Shown: in pieces, positions 8,973-60,667 of the stretch
How the letters are laid out: every line of letters starts with the position of its first letter
Numbering within the stretch: the stretch's first letter is position 1
Assembly: GCA_024763355.1 (NCBI GenBank)
Contig: JANTFR010000001.1
Location: 6,259-70,258 of the forward strand
Source of the DNA: Anaerolineales bacterium
GTDB taxonomy: Bacteria; Chloroflexota; Anaerolineae; Anaerolineales; DRKV01
Direction: 5' to 3'
DNA: 64,000 bases
Notes under the pieces: generated by a model
The model's input: the letters and a program-made list of their open reading frames with translations, nothing else
Told to the model about the DNA's origin: nothing
Databases searched by the model: none
Made by a program: the position numbers and the translations under genes

Positions 8973-9713
8973 ATGACCGAACAAGACATTTCCCCCACGC
9001 CTGAAGAGGCGCTTCCCCCTCAAGAGGAAGCCATTCCCGAAGAAACCCCGGCAGCAGACTCCCTTCCGGAGGCCCCCGCCCCCCCGGAGGAGGTCAGCCC
9101 CCCGGATTCTTTCACGCCTCCGCCCGCCGAGGCCGAGAGTACCCCATCCCCCAGCCGGGCACGCACTTTTCTGCGAAAAGCCCTCCGCTGGCTTATCGGA
9201 CTCTTCATCGTCTTTGCCCTGGGGTACCTGACCGCCTTTTTCACCATCTACCAGCCCCTGGCAAACAAATACGCTCAGGTCACATCTGATGCCCAAAAAG
9301 CCGCCGACCAGATTACCTCGCTGCAAGCAGACCTGGAGGCCGCCAACGCCCAGGCAGACGCGCTTCAAGAGAAACTGAAGGCCCTCGCCGCAGAGCGAGA
9401 TACCCTTCAGGAAGAAGTGGATGCCGCCGAACTCCACTTTTACACCCTGCGCGCCCTCTCTGACGTGCAGGGTGCGCGCCTGGCCCTGGCTGGCGAAGAC
9501 CTCGACACCGCTCGCGTCTATCTCTCCAAGACGCCCACCTACCTGGAGACGATGCAATCCCTGGCCGACTCCGATATGCAGGATGCCATCAAGGATATGC
9601 AGCAGCGCCTCACCCTGGTGCGGGGCGAACTGGAGGACAACCCCGATACGGCCGCCACGGATTTGGCTATCCTGGCCGACTGGCTGCGCCAGTTCGAGAC
9701 CGCTTTGCCCTGA
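8973..9713 (+). CDS. Pro/Glu-rich N-tail + TM + coiled-coil protein (hypothetical; paralogous layout to 7948..8943)
   Basis: P/E-rich 60 aa, TM WLIGLFIVFALGYLTAFFTIY, coiled coil ITSLQADLEAANAQADALQEKLKALAAERDTLQEE, and a helical tail with the same L..A..L..D..A pattern as the previous protein. Confidence 0.55.
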   Translation: MTEQDISPTPEEALPPQEEAIPEETPAADSLPEAPAPPEEVSPPDSFTPPPAEAESTPSPSRARTFLRKALRWLIGLFIVFALGYLTAFFTIYQPLANKYAQVTSDAQKAADQITSLQADLEAANAQADALQEKLKALAAERDTLQEEVDAAELHFYTLRALSDVQGARLALAGEDLDTARVYLSKTPTYLETMQSLADSDMQDAIKDMQQRLTLVRGELEDNPDTAATDLAILADWLRQFETALP

Positions 9714-9722
9714 CCTGAATCT

Positions 9723-9764
9723 AAAAAAAGCAGCGGACGACGAAGAGTCGTCCGCTGCTTTTTG
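9723..9764. terminator. Bidirectional rho-independent terminator between convergent genes
   Basis: AAAAAAA-GCAGCGGACGAC-gaaga-GTCGTCCGCTGC-TTTTT: perfect 12-bp stem flanked by an A-run and a T-run. Confidence 0.85.
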
Positions 9765-9779
9765 ATTCTTAGCGAGACA

Positions 9780-10880
9780 TCAGTAACGCAGCAAAGCAGC
9801 CACCCCACCAACTTCCCGCAGTTTAGGCACATCCTGAACGATTTCCACCTCGCCGCTGGACTGCATCACGTGTCGGATGGCGTACTCCACGGCATCGGGC
9901 AAGAGGCTAAACTGCCCTCCGCAGAAGGGGCAGGCATCCATCTTTTTGGTGGTGGTATAGCCGCAACTCTTGCACACATAGCCGCTCTGGTGGTAATCGT
10001 CGCTGACCAGGAGGGTCAAGACGCGTCCGGCGCGGGCCGCTTCCAAAACGTCATCCAGGCCGACGGCTCCTTCGCGTCCTTTAGCCGCCGCGGTAATCAC
10101 GTCCTCTACTAGCACGGCCTCTTCTTGTCGGTCGTACGCTGCCACAAGACGGCGAGCCTCTTCCTGTATCTCGCTCGCGCCGGCATTCATACTCACCGAG
10201 AAGGTCTCCACAACCCGGCTCTGCCACTGCTTGGGGAGATGCTGCCGAAAGAGGGCGATATTTTCCTCCGTGCCGGCCAGCAAAACGTGGCGAATCTTGT
10301 TTTGGGAGAGAAAACGCACGGCAAACTCGGCGGCGCGTTTCATGTTCTGTTCTATCGTCTCTTCGACGCGGTCAGTCCTTCCGGGCGTACCGCCGCGGCT
10401 ATCCGGATATTGGGAACCGCCCCCTCGCTTCATGCGATGGACGGGTTTCCCCGTAAACCCCGGATGTTCTTGCAGCACCCCCAGATGGAAGGTGAACACT
10501 CGCGCCCGCTGGCTGTCCACCAGGATGATTCCATAGTAGCCATAGCGGTCCAGCAGGTTCGCCAGCGGCTTCACGTGCGGGCGGTCATGGACGCGCACCC
10601 GGTCCGGGACGGGGATAGCCAGCGAGTAGACGCGGAAGAAATCTTCCGAAGCGCAGGAAAACAAGGCCACACTGCGCCCTTTGCCGTCATACTCGCGTTC
10701 CATGTATCCCAGGACAACTTCCTTGTCTTGCGGTAAATCCACGCTGCGCAGCATGGCGCGCAGCCGCGGCAAAGCGCTCTCATCGTTTCCCGTAAGAGCA
10801 TCGGTATTCAGATACACGCTCAACACAGGATGCGATGCCTGATAAGCAAGCAGTTCCTCGAACTTCTGTTCCGTGAGCAT
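9780..10880 (-). CDS. Archaeo-eukaryotic release factor (aeRF1/Pelota/Vms1)-like protein with inserted Cys4 zinc ribbon
   Basis: Gly-rich loop with Gln (HRMKRGGGSQYPDSRGG) where aeRF1-type proteins carry GGQ/GxxQ; C-terminal CKSCGYTTTKKMDACPFCGG. I prefer ATG 10880 (AAGGAG 8 nt upstream) over GTG 10889. Family call is from memory of the baeRF/VLRF1 layout, not a search. Confidence 0.55.
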   Translation of the reverse strand: MLTEQKFEELLAYQASHPVLSVYLNTDALTGNDESALPRLRAMLRSVDLPQDKEVVLGYMEREYDGKGRSVALFSCASEDFFRVYSLAIPVPDRVRVHDRPHVKPLANLLDRYGYYGIILVDSQRARVFTFHLGVLQEHPGFTGKPVHRMKRGGGSQYPDSRGGTPGRTDRVEETIEQNMKRAAEFAVRFLSQNKIRHVLLAGTEENIALFRQHLPKQWQSRVVETFSVSMNAGASEIQEEARRLVAAYDRQEEAVLVEDVITAAAKGREGAVGLDDVLEAARAGRVLTLLVSDDYHQSGYVCKSCGYTTTKKMDACPFCGGQFSLLPDAVEYAIRHVMQSSGEVEIVQDVPKLREVGGVAALLRY

Positions 10881-12085: not shown

Positions 12086-13069
12086 CTACCGTGATGCGCT
12101 AGCAGCCAGTTCCTCGAAAAGTTTTTTCTGCTTTGGGGTGAGATTGCGCGGTAACTCCACCTGAATTTTCGCCAGCAAATCGCCGCGCTGAGAAGGATTT
12201 TTCAGGTGAGGCATGCCGCGTCCGCGCAGGCGGAAGGTCTGCCCCGGCTGCGTGCCCGGCGGGATGGTCAACACCAGGCTGCCGCCGGTGGGCGTAGGAA
12301 CGTGTACCTCCCCGCCCAGAACGGCGGTGTAAAGGTCCACCGGCACGGTGGTGTGCAGATTGTACCCTTTGCGCTTGAAACGCGGGTCTTCGGCGACCTC
12401 CACGCGCAGGTACAGGTCGTGCGACTGCCCGGATGCGTCCCTGATGGCTCCGGGGACGCGCACTTTGGTGCCCGTCCGCGCTCCGGCAGGGATTTTCACT
12501 TCCAGGCGACGACCATCCACCTCAAAAGTGCGACTTGTGCCCTGGTATGCCTCCGCCAGACTGATGGTGACGGCCTGCTCGTAGCGGCGGAGTGGTGCAT
12601 TGCGCTGCTGCGCCCGGCTCCCCCCGCGGCGGGCGCCCCCCGCCTGGCGGAACAAATCTTCCATGTTGATGCCCTGCTGCGCTCCCCCCATGCCCCCTCC
12701 AAAAATGGTGCGGAAAAAGTCAGAGAAGCCGCCCGCGCCGCCAAACAGGTCATCTAAATTACCGACTTCGACGCGCACGCCACCAGGAGTACCGGTAGCC
12801 CATTGAGACCAGTTGAAATCCCCGGGGCCGCCGCGGCTTTGCCACGACTGGTACGCGCTGCCCAACTGGTCATAGCGGGCGCGTTTTTCAGGGTCGCTGA
12901 GCACCTGGTATGCTTCGTTTATTTCTTTGAATTTTTCTTCTGCGGTCTTATCGTCTGGGTTGCGGTCGGGATGATATTGCATTGCCAGTTTGCGATAGGC
13001 TTTTTTGATATCCTCTTCACTGGCATTTTTGTCTACACCAAGAATTGCATAATAATCTCTATATTCCAT
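12086..13069 (-). CDS. DnaJ-class co-chaperone without zinc-finger domain (CbpA-like)
   Basis: J-domain [35 protein letters not shown]-rich linker, two C-terminal beta domains, no CxxCxGxG repeats. Start moved to the internal MEYRDYY (ATG 13069). Confidence 0.85.
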
Positions 13070-17966: not shown

Positions 17967-19106
17967 TCACAGCCTCCTTTCGGCCAGAATCTCCCGGTAC
18001 ACATCCGCCAGTTCTTCCACCACCACGTCCAGGGCGTAAGATGTCTCCACCCGCCGGCGGGCGGCCTTGCCCAGGCGGGCGCGCAAGGCATCATCACCCA
18101 GCAGGTGCAACAAGGCAGCCTCCAAAGCGGGTCGGTCATCGGGCGGAATCAGCCAACCAGTCTCCCCATGGGAGACGACCTCCGGCGCAGCGCCCACCCT
18201 CGTGAGCAGAACGGCCAGACCGGTGCTCATCGCCTCCAGCATAGCCCCGGAAATGCCCTCGGCAATGGAAGGCAGCACGAACAAATCAGCCGCCGCCAGA
18301 AATTCATCCACATTTTGGACGTACCCGTGGAAGAAAACTTCCTCCCCCGCGGCGGATTGCAGGGCTTCTTGCTGGTCCCCCTCCCCCAAAATGTGGAGGC
18401 TCGCTTTGGGGTGAGCGCGGCGCACCCGAGGCCAGGCATCCACCAGAAAGTTCACCCGCTTCTCGGCGGCCAGCCGCCCGCTGAAGACGACCATCAGAGC
18501 ATCCGCGGGGACCCCCAAATGGCGGCGTAACGCCGCCCGCGCCTCCGGCGGACGCGGGTAAAAACGGGCGATGTTCACGCCATTGGGGATGTGCACCAGA
18601 CGCTTCGGAGGCACACCCGCCGACTGCAATTCGTCGGCAATCTCCCGGCTGATGCAGATGAAGCGCTCCCCCTGTGAAGCAATGGCGGCCATGCGCCGCG
18701 CTCCCAGGAATTTTTGCTGCAAGCGCTGCACGTCGCCGATAGAACCACCGCGATGGGGCGTGAAGAGCAACGGCCAGCCCCACAAACGCTTTGCCAGCAA
18801 GCCGATAGTAGCCGCAGAGAACAATTCATGGGCGTGCAAGATGTCGGGCTGGATGCGTCCCAAAACGCGCAGGGCGTGGAAGGTGTAACTCAGCGAAGCG
18901 GTAGCCTTTGGCCCGAAAATGGGGACGCGGTGTACGGATACGCCATCCATGTGCTCGAAGGCGGGCAGTCCGGCGTGCCGCCGCGTGATGATGTGGACAT
19001 CGAAGCCCAGGCGTACCAGCCGGGATGCCTGCGCGTGCGTCTGGCGCTCCATGCCCCCCAGGAGGGGCAGATAGCGCTGAATGGTAACGGCTAGGGTTGG
19101 TTGCAT
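17967..19106 (-). CDS. Family-4 (GT-B) glycosyltransferase
   Basis: C-terminal EGISGAMLEAMSTGLAVLLTRVGAAPEVV (the E-x7-E region of GT4). Start taken at MQPTLAVTIQRY (ATG 19106); residues upstream in the track ORF are translated micro-repeats. Confidence 0.75.
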   Translation of the reverse strand: MQPTLAVTIQRYLPLLGGMERQTHAQASRLVRLGFDVHIITRRHAGLPAFEHMDGVSVHRVPIFGPKATASLSYTFHALRVLGRIQPDILHAHELFSAATIGLLAKRLWGWPLLFTPHRGGSIGDVQRLQQKFLGARRMAAIASQGERFICISREIADELQSAGVPPKRLVHIPNGVNIARFYPRPPEARAALRRHLGVPADALMVVFSGRLAAEKRVNFLVDAWPRVRRAHPKASLHILGEGDQQEALQSAAGEEVFFHGYVQNVDEFLAAADLFVLPSIAEGISGAMLEAMSTGLAVLLTRVGAAPEVVSHGETGWLIPPDDRPALEAALLHLLGDDALRARLGKAARRRVETSYALDVVVEELADVYREILAERRL

Positions 19107-19300
19107 TGGTTCATCGGTTGCATTGGTTGCATTGGTTGCGTTGGTTGCATTGGTTGCATTGGTCGGATTGGTCGGATTGGTCAGGTAGTCGCCTGGTCGG
19201 GTAGTCTGTCGTCCGCCGTCCGTGGTCCGTGGTCTGTCGTCCGTCGCACGCCGCACGCCGCACGGTCTACCGTCCACCGTCTACGGTCCGTTGTCCGTCG
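19096..19300 (-). repeat. Micro-repeat array filling the whole spacer from the helicase-like stop to the GT4 start (about 14 x 7-mer, then about 10 x 9-mer)
   Basis: Minus-strand reading: GACGACGGACAACGGACC GTAGACGGTGGACGGTAGACC GTGCGGC GTGCGGC GTGCGAC GGACGACAGACCACGGACCACGG... CTACCCGACC..CTACCTGACC AATCCGACC x2 AATGCAACC x5-6, with the ATG inside the last units. Heptamer phase is constant 19206-19296; 9-mer phase 19098-19187. Confidence 0.9.
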
Positions 19301-21436
19301 TCAGTTTCCTGTCTCCATCAAAATGCGCGCCAGGGCGCGGAAGAGAGGGCCGCGCTGTTCGTAGCCCTGTTCGTTGAGTTCGCTGATGCCCAGGTAGATG
19401 CCTTTGCGGCAGCGGCGTACCAGCCCCAGCGCCAGACGCGCCAGGGTCTCGCGGTTGGTGTCGGCTTCGTCGAAATCCGTCCACGGGCGGCCAAATTCCC
19501 ACCGGCGGTTGAGGATGTAGGGATGGGTGAGAGGTTGGGCGATGCGGGTGAACCACTGCATGCTGCCGATGTCCAGCCAGAATTGGTAGTCCACGGCGCG
19601 GTTTTGCATCAGGAAGGTGTACGCCGGGGAGAGGAAGACGGCATCCGCCTCCGGCGACTGCCAGCGGCCCAGGTATTGGGCGGCAATCACGCCGTCCTCC
19701 ACCATGCGGAGGTATTCCTTTCCCACCGGCACGCCTTCGGCTTCCAGCACATCCCCCACCGCCCAGCGGAATTTGCGCACAGATTCCACCAGCATGGCCG
19801 CGGTTTGGGCGGCGTCGTAATCGCTGTGGAAGCCGTACCCCGGCTGGGAGAGCACCTCCCCGAACAGGCGGCGAATGAAGTGGTCGAGGGGCTGCGGCGC
19901 GCCGTCCTGATAAACTACCAGCCATTGGCGCAGGTTTTCGTAGGCCATCCCCAGACGGTAGGTAATCCGTTCGCGGGCGGCTTCCTCCAGGTTCTCGAAA
20001 GGCGTCAGGCGGGGACCTTCCGGGCCGAGGCGGTAGACGATGTCAGTCAGGAGGCGGGCGCGCACCAGGTCCATCGCCTCGATGGACTGCATGAGAGCGG
20101 CGCTGAAGTCGAAGGCGGCGGGATAGATGCCCCAATCGGGGTGCGCCAGGGCAGCCAGGGTCAGGAGGGAGCGGGTGGCGGGTTCTTCCCGCAGGGCGCG
20201 GGAGGGGCGGTGAGAGCGCGTCGGGAGGCCGGCATCTTCCAGGCGCGTCGTCAGGGCAAAGCGCAGCGAATCGATCAGGAAGGGGGCCAGGACGACAATC
20301 TCCCCGGGGGGGACTCCATCATCCACCAGGGCGGCGATTTGCTCCGTGACCCAGTCGAGCATCTGGGGGTAGTAGCGCAAATCGGGGGGGTAGGCAAGGT
20401 AACGGGAGACGCTCCCCCTCCGAATGGGGGGAGGCGGTTCTTTGGGGTCTGCATCCCCCTCCGAGGGGGGGCGGAGGCGCACCCAATGGGCGAGATGTTC
20501 CCCCAAATCGAGCAATTCACCGGGGGTAACGTGCGATTCCGAAAAGCGCACCGTTTCCCCGCACAGTTCCGCCAGGGGGAGCATACTTTGGGGGTCGGCA
20601 CCCAGGAAACGGCGGTATCCGGCTTCTTCGTCGAAAATCAGGAGGGCGCTCTCGAAATCGGGCAGCCATTCGGAGAGCAGGTCGGCCACGAGAGGCGGGT
20701 TTTCTTCCAGGTTGTCGGCAATCAGGTGGCGGTAGGTGTCCTGAAGGTACTCGCGGCACAGGGGCGTATCCCACAGGTGGCGGCGAAAGACCTCCAGTTG
20801 GAGGGAGAAGTCGAGCAGGTTGTGCTCCAGGCAAAAGCGGCGGAAGTCGTCTATGCAGGTTTGCGTCTCGTCGAAGATGTGGGCGTGACCGCTTTCCACG
20901 GGCCAGGAGGCTTTGAGGCGCCGGGAGACCTCGGCGAGGGGATAGGCGTTGAAGGCGGCTTTGTTGAGGTTATCGACCAACTGGCTATAGAGGCGATTGC
21001 GGCTGATGGTCAGGCCGGTGAACATCCCCTCCTGCAGACGCGGACGGACGAGATGCGCCATGTAGTACTGGGCGGTCTCCAGGGTGAGGAAGACGGGGGG
21101 CAGGTCGGGGCGGGCGAAGCCGGCCTCCTCGGCCACCAGGGGCCAGAAGAGTTCCGTCATGCGGCGCGCCAGGCCGCCGATGGTGAGCAAATCGGGGGCA
21201 GTGCCGTTGATGACGCCGGGGGTTTGCAGCGCCAGGGTGTACGGCTCTCCCAGGGTGCGTTGCGGAACGAGGATGAGAATTTGTCCGCCGGGGATGCCCT
21301 GCGCCATGAGGTGCAGCATCCGCTCCACGCCGACGGTGGTTTTTCCGCTCCCCGCCGGCCCGCGCAGGAAGACGGCGCCGCGAGGCGGGGCTTCGATAAG
21401 GGTGCGCTGGGAGGGGGTGAGGGGGAAAGTGGGCAA
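19301..21436 (-). CDS. UvrD/Rep-like superfamily-1 helicase-related P-loop protein
   Basis: LTPSQRTLIEAPPRGAVFLRGPAGSGKTTVGVERMLHL (Walker A) and ILILVPQRT. The start is uncertain: no ATG/GTG after the repeat array, so I chose the in-frame TTG at 21436. The longer track ORF (to 21838) runs through the 8-mer array and overlaps the acd gene start. Confidence 0.6.
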   Translation of the reverse strand: MPTFPLTPSQRTLIEAPPRGAVFLRGPAGSGKTTVGVERMLHLMAQGIPGGQILILVPQRTLGEPYTLALQTPGVINGTAPDLLTIGGLARRMTELFWPLVAEEAGFARPDLPPVFLTLETAQYYMAHLVRPRLQEGMFTGLTISRNRLYSQLVDNLNKAAFNAYPLAEVSRRLKASWPVESGHAHIFDETQTCIDDFRRFCLEHNLLDFSLQLEVFRRHLWDTPLCREYLQDTYRHLIADNLEENPPLVADLLSEWLPDFESALLIFDEEAGYRRFLGADPQSMLPLAELCGETVRFSESHVTPGELLDLGEHLAHWVRLRPPSEGDADPKEPPPPIRRGSVSRYLAYPPDLRYYPQMLDWVTEQIAALVDDGVPPGEIVVLAPFLIDSLRFALTTRLEDAGLPTRSHRPSRALREEPATRSLLTLAALAHPDWGIYPAAFDFSAALMQSIEAMDLVRARLLTDIVYRLGPEGPRLTPFENLEEAARERITYRLGMAYENLRQWLVVYQDGAPQPLDHFIRRLFGEVLSQPGYGFHSDYDAAQTAAMLVESVRKFRWAVGDVLEAEGVPVGKEYLRMVEDGVIAAQYLGRWQSPEADAVFLSPAYTFLMQNRAVDYQFWLDIGSMQWFTRIAQPLTHPYILNRRWEFGRPWTDFDEADTNRETLARLALGLVRRCRKGIYLGISELNEQGYEQRGPLFRALARILMETGN

Positions 21437-21470
21437 GGGGGAAGTTGGGAGGGAGTGAAGTGGAAGCGGA
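21403..21470 (-). repeat. Pyrimidine-rich CCACTT-family leader repeats at the helicase-like gene start
   Basis: Minus strand: CCGCTTCCACTTCACTCCCTCCCAACTTCCCCCTTGCCCACTTTCCCCCTCACCCCC. Shares CCCACTT(T/G)C cores with 30846-30905 and 46274-46321. Confidence 0.7.
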
Positions 21471-21499
21471 TGACGGGCGTAGACGGAGGACGACAGACC

Positions 21500-21587
21500 G
21501 ATGAACCGATGAACCGATGAACCGATGAACCGATGAACCGATGAACCGATGAACCGATGAACCGATGAACCGATGAACCGATGAACC
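21500..21587 (+). repeat. Perfect tandem array, 11 x GATGAACC
   Basis: 88 nt with no mismatch, preceded by GATGACGGGCGTAGACGGAGGACGACAGACC. Lies in the divergent spacer upstream of the acd promoter. Confidence 0.95.
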
Positions 21588-21645
21588 AATTGTAACCCAA
21601 ACCAAAGGGGGAAGAATGACACTTTCCACAGGCAGGCCTCGCGGC

Positions 21646-21651
21646 TATAAT
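21646..21651 (+). promoter_or_regulatory. Candidate -10 box (TATAAT) for the acyl-CoA dehydrogenase gene
   Basis: GGCTATAATGG 38 nt upstream of ATG 21690, followed by SD GAAGGAGAA. The -35 is poor (TTCCAC). Confidence 0.45.
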
Positions 21652-21689
21652 GGCGCACAAGGTCTATCGTTTGACGAAGGAGAACATTC

Positions 21690-22904
21690 ATGGATTTCAA
21701 CCTGTCCGAAGAGCATCGCATGGTGCAAAAAATGGTACACGACTTCGCCCAACGGGAAGTCGCTCCCATCATCAAAGAGTGGGACCGCAAACAGGATATG
21801 GCCCCCTTCATCCTGCCGCGCATGGGGGAACTGGGCATCCTGGGGATTTGTATTCCGGTCCGCTACGGAGGCGCGGGGATGGATTACGTCTCCCTGGGGC
21901 TGGCCTGCGAGGAACTGGAAGCGGTGGACACCACCCTGCGGGTGGTCATGTCCGTCCACACGGGGCTGTGCAGCATGACTCTGCTGCAATGGGGCAGCGA
22001 GGAGCAGAAGCAAAAATTCCTCGTGCCGCTGGCAAAAGGCGAAAAAATCGGCTGCGGGGCTTTCACCGAACCGGGAGCAGGCTCCGATTTCGCCCACATT
22101 CGCGGCAGCGCCCGCCGCGAAGGGGATTACTACATCCTGAACGGCGAGAAAATGTGGATTTCGCTGGCGAACAAGGCCGATTACGCCATGGTGACAATGC
22201 GTACCAATCCCAATGCAGAGAAAGCCAGCCGCGGCCTGACCTCCTTCATCGTGGATTTGCACAGTCCCGGCGTGACCCGCGGCGACATCCACGGGAAACT
22301 GGGGGTGCGCGCCGGCTCAACGGGCTGGATTCACTTCCAGGATGTGCGCGTCCCCGCGGAAAATCGCATTGGCGAGGAGGGCGAGGGCTTCAAAATCACG
22401 ATGTCGGCTTTCGACAACGGGCGTTACACCGTAGCCGCCGGCGCCACCGGCCTCATTCGTGCCGCGCTGGAGGAAAGCGTCAAATACGCCCGCGAGCGGC
22501 AGGCCTTCGGCAGCCCTATTGCCCAGCACCAACTCATCCAGGCAAAAATCGCCCGCATGGCAGTGGATTACGAGGCAGCGCGCCTGCTCTACCTGCAAGC
22601 CGGCTGGATGAAAAACGCGGGCAGCCGCAACACGCGGCAAACCTCGGCGGCCAAGTGGTTCGCCACGGATGCGTCCTTCGAGGCGGCCAGCGAGGCGGTG
22701 CAAATTCACGGGGGTTACGGCTTCAGCGACGAATACAACGTGGAACGCTACCTGCGGAATTCCAAAGGCGCGGTAATTTACGAGGGCAGCAACGAGATTC
22801 AGCGTCTCATCCAGGCCAGTTACGCCCTCGGATGGCGCACCGACAAACCCCTGCGCCGCGAACTTCCGCCTTACGACCCCGATTTCTGGCAGGAAGAAGC
22901 CTGA
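21690..22904 (+). CDS. Acyl-CoA dehydrogenase
   Basis: 404 aa: [53 protein letters not shown] (C-terminal catalytic Glu region). Followed by etfBA. Confidence 0.9.
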
Positions 22905-30845: not shown

Positions 30846-30905
30846 GGGAAAAATTTGCAAGCAGACAAGTGGGGAAGTGGGAAAGTAGGCAAGTTTGCAA
30901 GTGAG
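30846..30905 (-). repeat. CCACTT-family pyrimidine-rich leader repeats abutting the endonuclease III-like start codon
   Basis: Minus strand: CTCTCACTTGCAAACTTGCCTACTTTCCCACTTCCCCACTTGTCTGCTTGCAAATTTTTCCCC-ATG. CACTTGCAAACTT is identical to 46276-46288. Confidence 0.85.
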
Positions 30906-37611: not shown

Positions 37612-37617
37612 TATAAT
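37612..37617 (+). promoter_or_regulatory. -10 box TATAAT 9 nt upstream of the pcrA ATG (near-leaderless transcript predicted)
   Basis: GCTATAATCACCGCGCTATG; no SD is possible in the 9-nt gap. Confidence 0.5.
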
Positions 37618-37626
37618 CACCGCGCT

Positions 37627-39783
37627 ATGGACATCCTGGCAGGTCTCAACATTCAACAGCAGCAGGCCGTCACCGCCGGGCTGGGCCCCGTCATCGTGCT
37701 TGCCGGCCCCGGTTCCGGCAAAACGCGCGTCCTCACCCACCGCATCGCCTACCTGATTGGCTATCTGGGGGCGCGCCCCTACAACATCCTGGCGGTGACC
37801 TTCACCAACAAGGCTGCCCGAGAGATGAACCGCCGGGTAGAAGACCTGCTCGGCGGACAGACGCGCGGCCTGACGGTGGGTACGTTTCACGCCTTCTGCG
37901 CCCGTCTGCTGCGCCGCGAGGCCGAACACTTGCCCGTGGACGCCAATTACGTCATCTTCGACGCCGACGACCAGATTGGACTCGTCAAACAGGCCCTCAA
38001 AGACCTCAATCTGGATGACAAACGCTACCGTCCCTACGGGGTGCACGCCGCCATCTCCAACGCCAAGAACGAATTGCGCGGTCCGGACGAATATCCGGTG
38101 CAAAATTACCGCGATGAAGTCGTCCGCCGCGTCTACGAGCAGTACCAGAAATTGCTCCTTGCCAGCAACGCCGTGGATTTCGACGACCTGCTGCTTTACA
38201 CCGCCCGTCTGCTGGAAATGCACCCCGCGGTGCGCGAGCGCTACGCCCGCCGCTTCGAGCACGTCCTGGTGGACGAATTTCAGGACACCAACATGGCGCA
38301 ATACAGCCTCCTGCGCCATCTGGCCTCCTTCCACGGCAACATTTTCGTGGTGGGTGACGCCGACCAGTCCATTTACCGCTGGCGGGGCGCAGATTACCGC
38401 AACGTGCTGCGCTTCGAGAAGGACTACCCCGACGCCCAGGTAATTTTGCTGGAACAAAACTACCGTTCCACGCAGACCATTTTAGACGTAGCGATGGCGG
38501 TCATTGACCAGAATCCGCACCGCACCCCCAAGAAACTCTTTACCGACCGCGGCAGCGGCCTTCCCGTGACCATCAAGGAAATCGCCACCGACCGCCAGGA
38601 AGCCCAGTACGTCATCGAGACGATTGCCTCCCTGATTGCCCGCCACAAGGCACAGCCCGGCGATTTCGCCGTCATGTACCGCACCAACGCCCAATCCCGT
38701 ATTTTGGAGGAAACCTTCCTGCAGGCCGGCCTGCCCTACAAAATCGTGGGGGCGCAGCGTTTCTACGGACGGCGGGAAATCAAGGACATGATTGCCTACC
38801 TGCGGCTGGTGCACAATCCGCACGATGAAGTCAGCCTGATGCGCGTCATCAACGTGCCTCGCCGCGGCATCGGGGCAAAAACCGTCGCCGCTTTGCGGAC
38901 TGCGGCGCAGAAGGCCGGCCTCTCGATGGGCGCGCTGCTTTTAGAACTGGCGCAGAACCCCGAATCGCCCCACGCGGCGGCCTTCAGCGGACGCGCCCTG
39001 GGACTGTTGCGCGCTTTTGGCGATGCTCTCGCCTCCTGGCGCGCCGCCGGCCTCTCCCCCCGCCCCCTGCTGGACCGCATTCTGGACGACATTGACTACC
39101 GTCCCTACATTGACGACGGCTCCGACGAAGGCTACAGCCGCTGGGAGAACGTGATGGAATTGCGCCGCCTGGCCGCCGAGCAGGACGAAGCCGGACTGGA
39201 AGCCTTTCTGGAGCAAATTGCCCTCGTCGCCGACCAGGATACCCTCGACGAAAAGAGCAACGTCCCTACCCTGCTGACCTTCCACGCCGCCAAAGGGTTG
39301 GAGTTTCCGATTGTCTTTCTCGTCGGCCTCAACGACGGCATCCTGCCTCACCGTCGTTCCTTCGACGACCCCGAAGCCATGATGGAGGAACGCCGTCTGT
39401 TCTACGTGGGAATCACCCGCGCCAAAGACCGCCTTTATCTGCTCTATTCGGAGGAGCGCTACACTTACGGATATCCCGATTACGCCGAACCATCCCGTTT
39501 TTTGGCGGATATCCCCGAAGATTTGCTCACCGATGGGAAAAAGAGAACCTCCCGCGGCCCGCGGCGGGCGCGGCAAACCCGTTGGGAATCCTCCTCCAAA
39601 AAATCCCGCCCTCCCTCCAAGCCCCGCTACGCTGCCGGTCAGCGGGTGCGGCATCCCAAATTCGGGGAGGGTCTCATCCTCAGCACCCGTCTCGACGGCG
39701 AAGACGAAATCCTGGATGTCTTCTTCGAGAACGTCGGCATGAAGCGCGTCATCGCCTCCCTGGCGCGTCTCGAAAGCGTCTAA
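37627..39783 (+). CDS. pcrA: ATP-dependent DNA helicase PcrA/UvrD
   Basis: LNIQQQQAVTAGLGPVIVLAGPGSGKTRVLTHRIAYL, VDEFQDTN, YRSTQTIL, VTFHAAKGLEFPIVFL, LFYVGITRAK. Start at the internal MDILAGL. Confidence 0.9.
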   Translation: MDILAGLNIQQQQAVTAGLGPVIVLAGPGSGKTRVLTHRIAYLIGYLGARPYNILAVTFTNKAAREMNRRVEDLLGGQTRGLTVGTFHAFCARLLRREAEHLPVDANYVIFDADDQIGLVKQALKDLNLDDKRYRPYGVHAAISNAKNELRGPDEYPVQNYRDEVVRRVYEQYQKLLLASNAVDFDDLLLYTARLLEMHPAVRERYARRFEHVLVDEFQDTNMAQYSLLRHLASFHGNIFVVGDADQSIYRWRGADYRNVLRFEKDYPDAQVILLEQNYRSTQTILDVAMAVIDQNPHRTPKKLFTDRGSGLPVTIKEIATDRQEAQYVIETIASLIARHKAQPGDFAVMYRTNAQSRILEETFLQAGLPYKIVGAQRFYGRREIKDMIAYLRLVHNPHDEVSLMRVINVPRRGIGAKTVAALRTAAQKAGLSMGALLLELAQNPESPHAAAFSGRALGLLRAFGDALASWRAAGLSPRPLLDRILDDIDYRPYIDDGSDEGYSRWENVMELRRLAAEQDEAGLEAFLEQIALVADQDTLDEKSNVPTLLTFHAAKGLEFPIVFLVGLNDGILPHRRSFDDPEAMMEERRLFYVGITRAKDRLYLLYSEERYTYGYPDYAEPSRFLADIPEDLLTDGKKRTSRGPRRARQTRWESSSKKSRPPSKPRYAAGQRVRHPKFGEGLILSTRLDGEDEILDVFFENVGMKRVIASLARLESV

Positions 39784-42384: not shown

Positions 42385-42452
42385 GAACCAATGAACCAAT
42401 GCAACTAATGCAACCGATGCAACTAATGAACTAATGAACTAACCAACCAATG
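42385..42452 (+). repeat. 8-/9-mer array (G/C)AAC(C/T)AATG running into the dehydrogenase start codon
   Basis: GAACCAATG AACCAATG CAACTAATG CAACCGATG CAACTAATG AACTAATG AACTAACC AACCAATG-AACCAA. The ATG at 42450 is part of the last unit. Confidence 0.9.
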
Positions 42453-46251: not shown

Positions 46252-46321
46252 CGTACCACGTACCTCGTACTTGCCCACTTGCAAACTTTCCACTTGCTCA
46301 CTTTCCCACTTGCAAACTTTC
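46252..46321 (+). repeat. CGTACYN x3, then 3 x about 16-mer CCACTTGCAAACTTTC-family repeats abutting the GT4 start codon
   Basis: CGTACCA CGTACCT CGTACTT GCCCACTTGCAAACTTTC CACTTGCTCACTTTC CCACTTGCAAACTTTC CTC-ATG. Confidence 0.9.
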
Positions 46322-46324
46322 CTC

Positions 46325-48331: not shown

Positions 48332-48337
48332 TATAAT
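48332..48337 (+). promoter_or_regulatory. -10 box TATAAT exactly 6 nt upstream of the TPR gene ATG (leaderless mRNA predicted)
   Basis: CAGGTATAATCTCATCATG. Confidence 0.5.
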
Positions 48338-48343
48338 CTCATC

Positions 48344-49732
48344 ATGTCTCGCCGCCGCGCCCTCCTTTTCGTTTTCCTGATTTTCCTCCTCGGAGACTTT
48401 GTCTGGTGGCAGGCCGGCGCGCAAAACCGCGCCGCCCGCCGCGCCCTGGCACAGCGTGGCGAAGGCTATTCCCTGAGCGAACTGACCACCCTGGCACAGA
48501 CCGTCCCCGCGCCTGCCCTGTGGGAGGTGGCCGCCTGGCGAGCGGAGGAACGGGAACAATTCTCCATCGCGCGGGCCTGTCTGCTGCGCGCCCGCGCCGA
48601 GGGGATGCTCTCCTCCCAGGGGTACGGGCTGCTGGGCGACCTCACCGCCGAAACGGGCAACCTGGAAACCGCAGTCTCCTTCTGGGAGCAGGCTGTGGAA
48701 CAGGACGCCCCCCAGGCGGACATCTGGCGGCGCAAACTGGCGCAAGTGGCCGAAAGCCGCGGGGATTGGGAGGCCGCCCTGGAGCACTACCGCATTCTCT
48801 CGCAGCACGCCCCCGCAGATGCAGAACTTCTCTGCAAGGTAGCCACGCTGCTTTCCGTCCTGCACCCCGCCGAAGCCCCCGCATATCTGGAACTCGCTGC
48901 CGCCTCGTCTTCTCCCTGCGCCGCGTTGGCCGCATCCCTGCGCGATGCCCTCGTGCAGGGTAGTTTGCAGGACGACCCCGCTTACATCGCCGTGCTGACG
49001 GGACGAGCATTGGGGGCGCATGGGGAATGGGCGCTGGCCGCCGAAGCCTTCCGCCGCGCCGTGGAGCGCAATCCCGATTACGCCGAAGGTTGGGCTTTCT
49101 GGGGACAGGCCCTCGAAACCCTCGGCCTGGACGGAAGTCGCGCCCTGGAAACCGCGCTGCGTCTCGACCCCGCTTCGCTCACCGCGGCCAGTTTGAACGC
49201 CCTCTACTGGCGCAACCGCGGGCAACCCGAAAAAGCGCTGGTCTATTTCTACCGCGCCGCCCGCAGCGAGCCGGAAAACCCGCTGTGGGAGATGGAAATC
49301 GGGGCGACTCTGGCGCAGATGGGGAATATCTCCAATGCGCTGGAACACTACCGCAAAGCGACCTCCCTGGCGTCCAACGACCCCGCTCCCTGGCGCGCCC
49401 TGGCGGAGTTTTGCCTGCAATACGGTCTGGAAATCAAGGAAACCGCCCTGCCCGCCGCCCGCCAAAGCGTTCTGCTGGCCCCTCAGGAGGCCGCCTCCCC
49501 GGAAATCCTGGGACGCGTGTACCTGCGCCTGGGCGACCTGACCAGCGCCCGCCGCCTCGCCCGCCGCGCCCTCGCCCTGGATTCCGGTTACACCCCGGCC
49601 TACCTGGATTTAGGGCTGATTGCATCCCTGCAAGGGGACGACGCCCTTGCCCGCCGCATGTACCAGACCGTTATCTCCCTCGCTCCGGATTCCCCCTGGG
49701 CTGCCCAGGCCCGCCGCCTGCTGGGGCCATAG
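48344..49732 (+). CDS. Tetratricopeptide-repeat protein with N-terminal TM/signal anchor
   Basis: N-terminus RRRALLFVFLIFLLGDFVWW, then repeated A/L/Y-rich 34-aa units (e.g. GWAFWGQALETLGLDGSRALETALRLDP). Confidence 0.7.
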   Translation: MSRRRALLFVFLIFLLGDFVWWQAGAQNRAARRALAQRGEGYSLSELTTLAQTVPAPALWEVAAWRAEEREQFSIARACLLRARAEGMLSSQGYGLLGDLTAETGNLETAVSFWEQAVEQDAPQADIWRRKLAQVAESRGDWEAALEHYRILSQHAPADAELLCKVATLLSVLHPAEAPAYLELAAASSSPCAALAASLRDALVQGSLQDDPAYIAVLTGRALGAHGEWALAAEAFRRAVERNPDYAEGWAFWGQALETLGLDGSRALETALRLDPASLTAASLNALYWRNRGQPEKALVYFYRAARSEPENPLWEMEIGATLAQMGNISNALEHYRKATSLASNDPAPWRALAEFCLQYGLEIKETALPAARQSVLLAPQEAASPEILGRVYLRLGDLTSARRLARRALALDSGYTPAYLDLGLIASLQGDDALARRMYQTVISLAPDSPWAAQARRLLGP

Positions 49733-52195: not shown

Positions 52196-52204
52196 ACGGT
52201 GGAT

Positions 52205-52239
52205 AGTGCGGAGTGCGGAGTGCGGGGTGCGACGTGCGG
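52205..52239 (+). repeat. 5 x heptamer array (A/G/C)GTGCG(G/A)
   Basis: AGTGCGG AGTGCGG AGTGCGG GGTGCGA CGTGCGG, preceded by GGACGGTAGACGGTGGAT, which starts inside the acpS 3' end and spans its stop codon. Confidence 0.9.
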
Positions 52240-52270
52240 TAGACTACCTGACCACCCGCCCCTGACTAAT

Positions 52271-52450
52271 CCGACCAATTCGACCAATCCGACCACTTCG
52301 ACCAATCCGACCACTTCGACCACTCCGACCACTCCGACCACTCTGACCAATCAGACCACTTCGACCACTTCGACCACTCCGACCAATCAGACCACTTCGA
52401 CCACCCCGACCAATTCGACCAATCAGACCACTCCGACCAATCAGACCAAC
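52271..52450 (+). repeat. 20 x 9-mer array, consensus YNGACCAMT, ending 6 nt before the HerA-like ATG
   Basis: CCGACCAAT TCGACCAAT CCGACCACT TCGACCAAT CCGACCACT TCGACCACT CCGACCACT CCGACCACT CTGACCAAT CAGACCACT TCGACCACT TCGACCACT CCGACCAAT CAGACCACT TCGACCACC CCGACCAAT TCGACCAAT CAGACCACT CCGACCAAT CAGACCAAC. Confidence 0.95.
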
Positions 52451-52456
52451 CGACCC

Positions 52457-57621: not shown

Positions 57622-57654
57622 AGACCTCACAGGTCTGAGAGACCTGTGAGGTCT
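57622..57654. repeat. Palindromic hairpin element, copy 2 (AGACCTCACAGGTCT-gag-AGACCTGTGAGGTCT)
   Basis: Perfect 15-bp inverted repeat 12 nt after the thrB stop and 17 nt before the response-regulator ATG. Could act as a terminator/attenuator, but has no U-tract. Confidence 0.9.
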
Positions 57655-60629: not shown

Positions 60630-60667
60630 AGTCCTCACAGGTCTATCAAGGCAGACCTGTGAGGACT
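60630..60667. repeat. Palindromic hairpin element, copy 3 (AGTCCTCACAGGTCT-atcaaggc-AGACCTGTGAGGACT)
   Basis: 15-bp perfect stem. Relative to copies 1 and 2 the A>T change in the left arm is matched by T>A in the right arm (compensatory). Lies between the membrane-protein gene and the SLT gene. Confidence 0.9.

Follow-up and report, generated by a model that had tools for sequence, protein, structure and literature searches.

The closest described systems to the array treated here are (i) the long simple sequence repeats (LSSR), with units of 5-11 nt (Mrazek et al. 2007), which are attributed in the summaries given by PMC4679880 and PMC11868660 to polymerase slippage and not to classical phase variation, (ii) the GGGNATC and GGGGA(C/T)T heptamers of Xanthomonas and Nostoc, including the cyanobacterial short tandemly repeated repetitive sequences (STRR), whose function is unknown (Rehm et al. 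2015, PMC4692102), (iii) the TAACTGA direct repeats of marine Beggiatoaceae, which are oriented and lie directly upstream of start codons that lack a Shine-Dalgarno (SD) sequence, also inside operons (MacGregor 2015, PMC4679880), and (iv) the (TGAAAGA)13-38 and (GCATCATC)12-15 tracts 70-210 bp upstream of H. influenzae hmw1A and hmw2A, whose copy number modulates expression according to the account in PMC2651432 (Dawid et al. 1999). No function has been demonstrated for the Xanthomonas/Nostoc and Beggiatoaceae repeats (PMC4692102, PMC4679880). The array studied here, (GATGAACC)x11, lies in a stretch of 64,000 nucleotides (the window) from an Anaerolineales bacterium (assembly GCA_024763355.1, contig JANTFR010000001.1, positions 6,259 to 70,258 of the forward strand), in the spacer between a helicase-like gene and a divergent acyl-CoA dehydrogenase (ACAD) gene. 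Its features match those of the known LSSR class with 5-11-nt units, as do cyanobacterial STRR and the Xanthomonas/Nostoc heptamers. We read the tract, with a probability of roughly 0.65, as a dispensable, slippage-prone satellite, the youngest expansion within a genome-wide population of 7-9-bp arrays in this Anaerolineae lineage.

A regular expression count finds 11 copies of GATGAACC at 21500-21587, 88 nt with zero mismatches, and Tandem Repeats Finder (TRF) reports the tract as 21497-21587 with a period of 8, 11.4 copies, 100% matches and a score of 182. A perfect 8-periodic run of 88 nt cannot be of chance origin; as with LSSR, head-to-tail units extend far beyond chance length. The tract is the sole perfect array with at least four copies that TRF finds in the window: the other rows with 100% matches do not exceed 3.0 copies, and in the other long arrays the matches amount to 68-96%. 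An earlier reading made from the sequence only had described both the 11 error-free copies and their status as the only perfectly homogeneous array in the window, and the two programs bear this out, the second statement among arrays with at least four copies. The base composition (G22/C24) gives no GC skew, and A is much more frequent than T. The divergent spacer that holds the array measures 253 nt, with the helicase-like gene on its left (- strand) and the ACAD gene on its right (+ strand); 102 nt separate the array from the ACAD ATG, and its distance to the helicase TTG, on the opposite strand, is 64 nt. The principal features are as follows.

21500-21587, + strand: perfect tandem array (GATGAACC)x11, to which TRF adds a partial unit from 21497.
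21588-21689, + strand: promoter and leader block of the ACAD gene, ~100 bp, from alignment A1 (7 orthologues) and a promoter scan.
Elements of this block, + strand: ATTGTA 21589-21594; GGAAGAA 21610-21616; -35 TTTCCA 21623-21628; -10 TATAAT 21646-21651; SD GAAGGAGAA 21676-21684.
21690-22904, + strand: ACAD gene, ATG at 21690, three Acyl-CoA_dh domains, with ETF beta and then ETF alpha genes downstream.
19301-21436, - strand: helicase-like P-loop gene, 711 aa, with a weak UvrD match at its N-terminus; its start codon, TTG 21436-21434, is part of a CACTTGC-type repeat unit.

The helicase-like protein assigns the window to the class Anaerolineae of the Chloroflexota. The divergent gene pair is found again in six other assemblies, identified through protein search and exact-protein look-ups. 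Percent identities given below are those of the ACAD nucleotide sequence to the window, whose strain is L001, unless a pair is named.

L083 (GCA_054037075.1): 93.9% to the window.
L086, L087, L004 and L082 (several assemblies): ~90% to the window and 96-99% to each other.
L084 (GCA_054028915.1): 86.8% to the window; the gene pair is also on Logan contig L085.

The segment between the promoter block and the helicase start is 152 nt long in the window, ~400 nt in L083 and 71 nt in L084/L085, and the GATGAACC array is absent or replaced in all orthologous spacers. In L083 the segment is built from GACGGTG x3, a GACGACG/GACGATG run (22 copies by TRF), a GACTACCC...GACC linker, AATGAACC x2, AATGCAACC x2 and AATCCAACC x5. 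The segments of L004, L082 and L087 hold unrelated AAGTGTGA, TATCACGTG, GGGTTAGGGGTTGC and CCCAATC/CCCTGCT arrays, CACCCA arrays are also found in the ~90% group, and L086 has ~430 nt of further repeat families. The 71 nt of L084 and L085 (87%) are free of arrays, and the helicase there begins with ATG. Length and sequence variation at one locus between close relatives is what is found: the spacer is hypervariable, and copy number is not the invariant property whose discovery would have counted against the earlier reading. In the orthologous spacers of L087 (~9880-9935) and L086 (~9716-9770), the strand antisense to the helicase carries (GGGGTTAGGGGTTGC)n arrays, which are telomere-like and prone to G-quadruplex formation.

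The promoter block on the other side of the array does not follow this variation. Conservation in alignment A1 starts at ATTGTA, one base past the array, in all 7 genomes, and extends through GGAAGAA, CACTTT(C/G)CAC, GCGGCTATAAT and the SD up to the ATG. Positions 21588-21653 are identical to L083 at 66/66 sites, against a neutral divergence of K=0.18 at four-fold degenerate sites of the ACAD gene. The TTTCCA-17-TATAAT element (21623-21651, + strand) is the only sigma-70-like match of the promoter scan in 21300-21800, and the 3' end of the array is 35 nt upstream of its -35 hexamer. Scan and alignment agree with the earlier statement that the array is promoter-distal for the ACAD gene. The left edge of the block, AACCAATTGTAACCCAAACCAA (21586-21607), resembles the terminal AACC-type units AACCAATGCAACCAACAAACCAA (compared with L083 ~12375-12410); the arrays may have been seeded from native sequence, or the likeness may be coincidence, and L084 has ATTGTAACCCA without arrays.

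This geometry bears on the proposal that the tract is a tunable or phase-variable cis-regulator, in which slippage would act on spacing, on phasing or through an upstream element and so alter the activity of the ACAD promoter, the helicase promoter or both. A perfect tract of 11 copies is highly slippage-prone, array content is strongly variable between relatives, and the position ~100 bp upstream of the ACAD ATG is like that of the expression-modulating hmw heptamer tracts in the account of PMC2651432, citing Dawid 1999; perfect 7-8-nt tracts upstream of a gene make hmw the best precedent for this regulator model. The array is nevertheless non-coding and outside the -35/-10 interval of the sole predicted promoter, although it could overlap a regulator site, and the block is the same beside the GATGAACC array, beside unrelated arrays and, in L084, beside none. 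A change in copy number would leave the ACAD -35/-10 geometry unaffected and at most shift the distance from the helicase start to the shared promoter block, and this evidence does not support the suggestion that copy number sets promoter spacing or phasing. Furthermore, the unit itself is replaced between relatives, whereas hmw tracts keep one unit that varies in number among strains. The hmw tracts control surface adhesins of a host-adapted pathogen; here the neighbours are metabolic or housekeeping genes (ACAD, ETF, helicase-like), with no surface, host-interaction or restriction-modification association, in a free-living environmental bacterium full of such arrays. With arrays of the same kind in many other spacers and housekeeping genes as neighbours, the claim of a functional regulator is not supported, the tract probably lacks a dedicated regulatory role, and cis-regulation of this type appears improbable. 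A perfect repeat beside a promoter is not by default a switch, and a tempting over-interpretation is thereby removed.

The genomes also give a measure of how quickly the arrays change. L004 and L082 (98.8%) have equal copy numbers and differ by point changes only, L087 and L082 (97.4%) differ in copy number in every array, and between the window and L083 (~94%) the array content itself differs; array turnover scales with divergence in these comparisons. Since the split of the window and L083 lineages, ~8 substitutions would be expected on one lineage in 88 neutral sites and 0 are observed (P=3.5e-4), so that the GATGAACC tract has either been expanded recently or is continually homogenised. 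It is likely that arrays of this class arise and are remodelled by replication slippage, by multi-unit duplication and deletion and by exchange between copies, and that they persist only where function stays undisturbed. The GATGAACC tract would be tolerated because the part of the spacer it occupies, from the helicase start region to the invariant block, is the only unconstrained one.

A recent and perfect repeat in a contig from a metagenome-assembled genome (MAG) raises the concern that the copy number, or the array itself, was created by assembly. A Logan contig with an identical ACAD gene, found by exact-protein look-up, stops inside the GATGAACC array, so the k=31 assembly breaks within it. 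The same contig is an independent record of at least 3.75 identical units followed by the same right flank, six independent assemblies have arrays of this class at the same place, and at 88 nt the tract is shorter than the final k-mers and read lengths that assemblies typically have. An artefact is the least credible of the explanations considered. Beyond this contig, the only other one of the window strain, the ACAD exact-protein look-up gave no strain with the GATGAACC array. The helicase call and the public gene call P0122 (described below) had no record in the exact-protein look-up, the ACAD and GT4 protein clusters had no further member, and one metagenome scan with the conserved flank recovered only an L004-like strain.

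A counterpart to the ACAD-facing part of the spacer is found at the other end of the helicase gene, where the junction towards a GT4 glycosyltransferase gene carries a composite array.

19107-19300, - strand: paralogous composite array S6, from the helicase stop to the GT4 start, in the opposite orientation to the part of the target spacer that faces ACAD.
21479-21499, + strand: GTAGACGGAGGACGACAGACC, a remnant of the GACGG / GACGACAGACC 7-mer family, collinear with S6 (19107-19300) and with S5 and S6 of L083.

The ACAD-facing part of the spacer (S5) is collinear with S6 on the opposite strand. S6 consists of GACGG / GACGACAGAC units, a GACTACCYGACC linker, (GACCAATCC / AACCAATGC) units, one GATGAACC unit (19108-19115) and the ATG; the junction terminates ...CAACCGATGAACCAATG, which contains this single unit. 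The order of families recurs: GACGG/GACGACAGACC, then GACTACCYGACC, then GACCAATCC/AACCAATGC/GATGAACC, then the gene. The GACGG / GACGACAGACC family also stands ahead of AACC-type arrays in other spacers, and L083 has ~22-25 of its units at the position equivalent to 21479-21499. Compared with the helicase-to-GT4 junction, the direct contact of GACGACAGACC with GATGAACC in the target spacer fits a deletion of the middle part, and slippage of the last GATGAACC unit in a composite array shortened in this way may have produced the tract. An inverted-repeat search of window positions 19050-21650 with a seed of 12 found nothing, and the S5/S6 relationship in the window therefore depends on gapped alignment. 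In L083 the two copies (9642-9869 and 12124-12351) flank the helicase gene as a 228-nt inverted repeat (85%). Both L083 arms have an identical 46-nt linker that differs from the window copy; a variant which the arms share and the window copy lacks suggests exchange between copies, or concerted evolution.

The tract is one member of a large population, for which the abundance figures come from the 64-kb window and from 22-kb loci. Most spacers from 19 kb to 52 kb of the window contain 7-10-nt arrays by TRF, with 7 as the commonest period, followed by 8 and 9. By a self-trained gene map, 16% of intergenic bases and 0.8% of coding bases lie in arrays, a contrast that is understated because a 192-nt array (52264-52455) was miscounted as coding, the true start of its gene being ATG 52457. 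Many arrays, concentrated in non-coding DNA and with heptamers commonest, are what the LSSR class would lead one to expect. At the syntenic 22-kb loci the intergenic array cover is 20-28% in L083, L086 and L087 and 0% in L084. The arrays occupy the same three spacers (asparaginase to HhH-GPD, ACAD/helicase, and helicase to GT4), which in L084 measure 27, 173 and 44 nt. Among 88 sequences surveyed (the window and 87 loci, mostly from other Anaerolineae), 69 have no array of period 6-10 with at least four copies; the array load outside the clade is 1.2 bp/kb, against 14.5 in the window, although short-read MAGs may under-report arrays. The arrays have a mixed set of housekeeping genes as neighbours: tsaE, a TsaD-family (tsaB-like) gene, GNAT, UDG, UDP-glucose dehydrogenase, an epimerase and glycosyltransferases.

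The biggest array of the window (52196-52456) fills a whole stop-to-start junction with AGTGCGG x5, a GACTACCTGACC linker and ~20 copies of GACCAMTYC. The gene downstream of it starts at ATG 52457 (MNQLAYIIGGG...) and not at the upstream GTG of the longest open reading frame (ORF).

On the helicase side, the first matter to settle is where the gene begins. The helicase reading frame stays open through the GATGAACC array up to 21838, and the array was considered as coding sequence of an ORF open from that point; this was rejected, as homologues match only downstream of TTG 21436 and orthologues start there, with TTG or ATG at the equivalent position. TTG 21436 is the in-frame start closest to the conserved N-terminus, and the next in-frame ATG, GTG or TTG is TTG 21589, past the array. 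The earlier choice of TTG 21436 is confirmed by the frame and by the shared start position. A public gene call of 785 aa (P0122), identical to the window frame from GTG 21658 (region 21437-21658, - strand), reads the array as VHRFIGSS repeats and runs across the ACAD promoter; its N-terminal extension has no match in any homologue and is accordingly an annotation artefact. Arrays of this kind mislead gene callers and break short-read assemblies.

The start is set in a second repeat family, which leads into it from the upstream side.

21437-21469, - strand: degenerate CCACTT / CAACTT C-rich leader directly upstream of the helicase TTG, its last 30 nt without G, and without an SD sequence.

The CCACTT/CCCACTTTCC family as a whole spans 21403-21470, is degenerate and is not called by TRF; its left part, 21403-21436, is helicase codons 1-11. 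Orthologous spacers carry clear ACTTTCAC / ACTTGCA arrays in its place, and arrays related to it are found just upstream of two other start codons of the window (30867-30894 and 46269-46322). On comparison of these sequences the family is real despite its degeneracy, and it faces the helicase and contains its TTG start, as originally described. ACTTGCA arrays were considered as donors of a -35 element and rejected, as there is no -10 at the right spacing.

Start codons within repeat units are seen at several places. The helicase TTG (21434-21436) is inside an ACTTGC-type unit in the window and likewise in L083, L004 and L087, and the ATGs of the GT4 and UDP-glucose dehydrogenase genes are in AACCAATG units (19104-19115 and 42447-42452). 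In a more distant orthologue (L002, 280-333; 73% amino-acid identity) a C/T-rich (CTGCCTT)x7.7 array reaches the SD-less ATG of the helicase-like gene.

The remaining question on this side is whether the array is transcribed, for which the spacer offers one candidate element.

21589-21594, - strand: TACAAT, the reverse complement of the invariant ATTGTA and a candidate helicase -10, invariant in 7/7 orthologues.

On the helicase-sense strand, TACAAT is the sole TANNNT hexamer that the spacer has in 5/7 genomes (window, L087, L084, L004 and L082). The sigma-70 scan of 21300-21800 gives no promoter on the helicase strand and no good -35 with TACAAT, so the proposal draws on conservation only. 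If TACAAT is the helicase -10, transcription would start near 21582, the whole variable segment would be 5' untranslated region (UTR), with the array as (GGUUCAUC)n, ~88 nt, coming first, and a change in copy number would alter the length of that UTR. This assignment is tentative, at somewhat less than even odds; for ATTGTA, a role as upstream element of the ACAD promoter is just as possible.

With transcription, the array could act as an RNA-level element: comparable to the C/A-rich arrays that adjoin SD-less starts elsewhere in the window, it would offer ribosomal protein S1, cold-shock proteins (CSP) or scanning ribosomes a platform free of structure, with its length tuning translation or mRNA stability. 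It would likely be reached as the 5' end of a helicase leader that begins at TACAAT and, less likely, towards ACAD from an unseen upstream promoter. A like idea has been put forward for the TAACTGA repeats (PMC4679880). The conservation of TACAAT is consistent with this, as are the lack of an SD and of G near the helicase start. Folding of either strand of the array yields no structure beyond that of shuffled sequence (z +0.6 and +1.8), and Rfam has zero matches at gathering thresholds in the window and zero at E<=1 in 21300-21800. An SD is absent from 10/11 array-adjacent genes, against 13/41 genes without an adjacent array (Fisher p=6e-4), so that arrays abutting starts go together with SD absence. 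Against this stand the missing -35, the 64 nt that separate the array from the helicase start which it does not adjoin, its orientation in the helicase mRNA, 'wrong' way round relative to AACC-type arrays elsewhere, and L084, which has the same gene pair without any array. In addition, the array-free junctions of L084 and SD-less genes without arrays are likewise C-rich, from which it seems that arrays conform to a pre-existing leader composition and do not create it. An RNA-level role is unlikely on balance.

The arrays do have a clear polarity. In same-strand junctions the start-proximal half is strongly biased to C over G on the sense strand (GC skew -0.38 to -0.76), and the stop-proximal half has a less negative skew in 15/15 of them, a point that also favours an RNA-level element; in divergent spacers the skew changes sign between the two halves. 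AACC-type AACCAATGC / TGAACCAA / GACCAATCC arrays have their A-rich strand as the sense strand of the adjacent downstream gene at 5/5 sites in the window and 2/2 in L083, sites that are partly orthologous and hence not independent. The sequence-only reading had seen two families in one spacer, each oriented toward its own gene, and had taken this to support orientation-dependent function. The orientation holds, GATGAACC pointing toward ACAD as its relatives do toward their genes; the regulatory function attached to it does not.

The polarity could be taken further, to a reading in which the arrays are no filler and serve as lineage-specific mRNA-level modules for expressing SD-less genes. Purine/G-rich arrays after stops and unstructured C/A-rich arrays before starts would take ribosomes, or a protein of S1/CSP type, over the junctions within operons, repeat units would hold the start codons, and gene conversion would keep the copies alike. 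The GATGAACC tract, transcribed from TACAAT, would then be a hypermutable knob on the helicase leader. We consider this proposal doubtful, about as improbable as cis-regulation.

Several points weigh against our preferred reading of the tract as a dispensable satellite. Both sub-lineages have arrays in the same three spacers, which could mean selection, for instance for length or for lack of structure, and not mere tolerance. The non-random orientation of the arrays implies a directional constraint, and selection at the mRNA level does not explain the orientation of an array upstream of the ACAD promoter. Absence from L084 shows that an array is dispensable there, not that it has no effect in the window strain.

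The direct repeats could also be sites for a DNA-binding protein (nucleoid-associated, a regulator, or iteron-like) that organises or insulates the divergent promoters. Eleven identical direct repeats stand beside a conserved promoter block, and the orientation of the family is consistent. The 8-bp period is however out of helical phase, the unit is not palindromic, and, of the 87 loci fetched, L001 and L083 alone have the pattern ATGAACCRATGAACC, with unrelated units or none in the orthologous spacers. Iterons and direct-repeat operators have units of ~17-22 bp or in helical phase and a cognate protein nearby, in contrast with the 8-bp unit here, which has no replication or regulator gene adjacent and no candidate binding protein encoded nearby. 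Such an array of binding sites is very unlikely.

Returning to the described systems with the satellite reading in mind, the arrays of the window resemble LSSR, as these are summarised in the sources cited above, in their head-to-tail 7-9-nt units beyond chance length, the predominance of heptamers, the mostly non-coding location and the sporadic phylogenetic distribution. They differ in that many unit families coexist here, strung in a recurring order. Literature searches for tandem repeats in Anaerolineae or Chloroflexi/Chloroflexota found no report.

With the Xanthomonas and Nostoc heptamers the arrays share an intergenic excess, occurrence at the same gene junctions in close relatives despite wide variation in length and sequence, and neighbouring genes of all functional classes (PMC4692102). 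The polarity of those heptamers, in which the G-rich strand follows stops and the C-rich strand precedes starts, has its parallel in the 15/15 same-strand junctions, while the GATGAACC tract itself shows an excess of A over T only. STRR-like CCCCAAT units occur in the orthologous spacer of L004. Those heptamers are under-represented between divergent genes, whereas the GATGAACC array sits between divergent genes and has a unit of 8 nt instead of 7; without G-tracts or GC skew it also has no quadruplex potential, unlike the heptamers.

The Beggiatoaceae repeats find their counterpart in other arrays of the window and in the CCACTT family before the helicase, which adjoin SD-less starts. The GATGAACC array itself differs, being 102 nt from an ATG with a strong SD (GAAGGAGAA), and there are many unit families and longer arrays here, compared with one family there. 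The array-rich genomes (window, L083, L086 and L087) and the array-free L084, with gene order and promoters shared, form a natural comparison that could help explain the role of 7-9-nt intergenic repeats and why they build up in some lineages only, a question that extends to cyanobacterial STRR and to the repeats of Xanthomonas and Beggiatoaceae.

Two further observations concern other spacers of the window. TATAAT is found 9 nt upstream of the ATG of a UvrD/PcrA gene (37612-37629) and 6 nt upstream of that of the gene at 48344 (48332-48346), which suggests that these promoters may give leaderless mRNAs; 7-10-nt arrays stand ahead of both, TTCGTGGACA at the first and GCACTTG and ACGTGAT at the second. 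A palindrome of repetitive extragenic palindromic (REP)-like form, CCTCACAGGTCT - short loop - AGACCTGTGAGG, is present in three intergenic spacers (1846-1872, 57625-57651 and 60633-60664), with 6 half-sites found against 0.16 expected.

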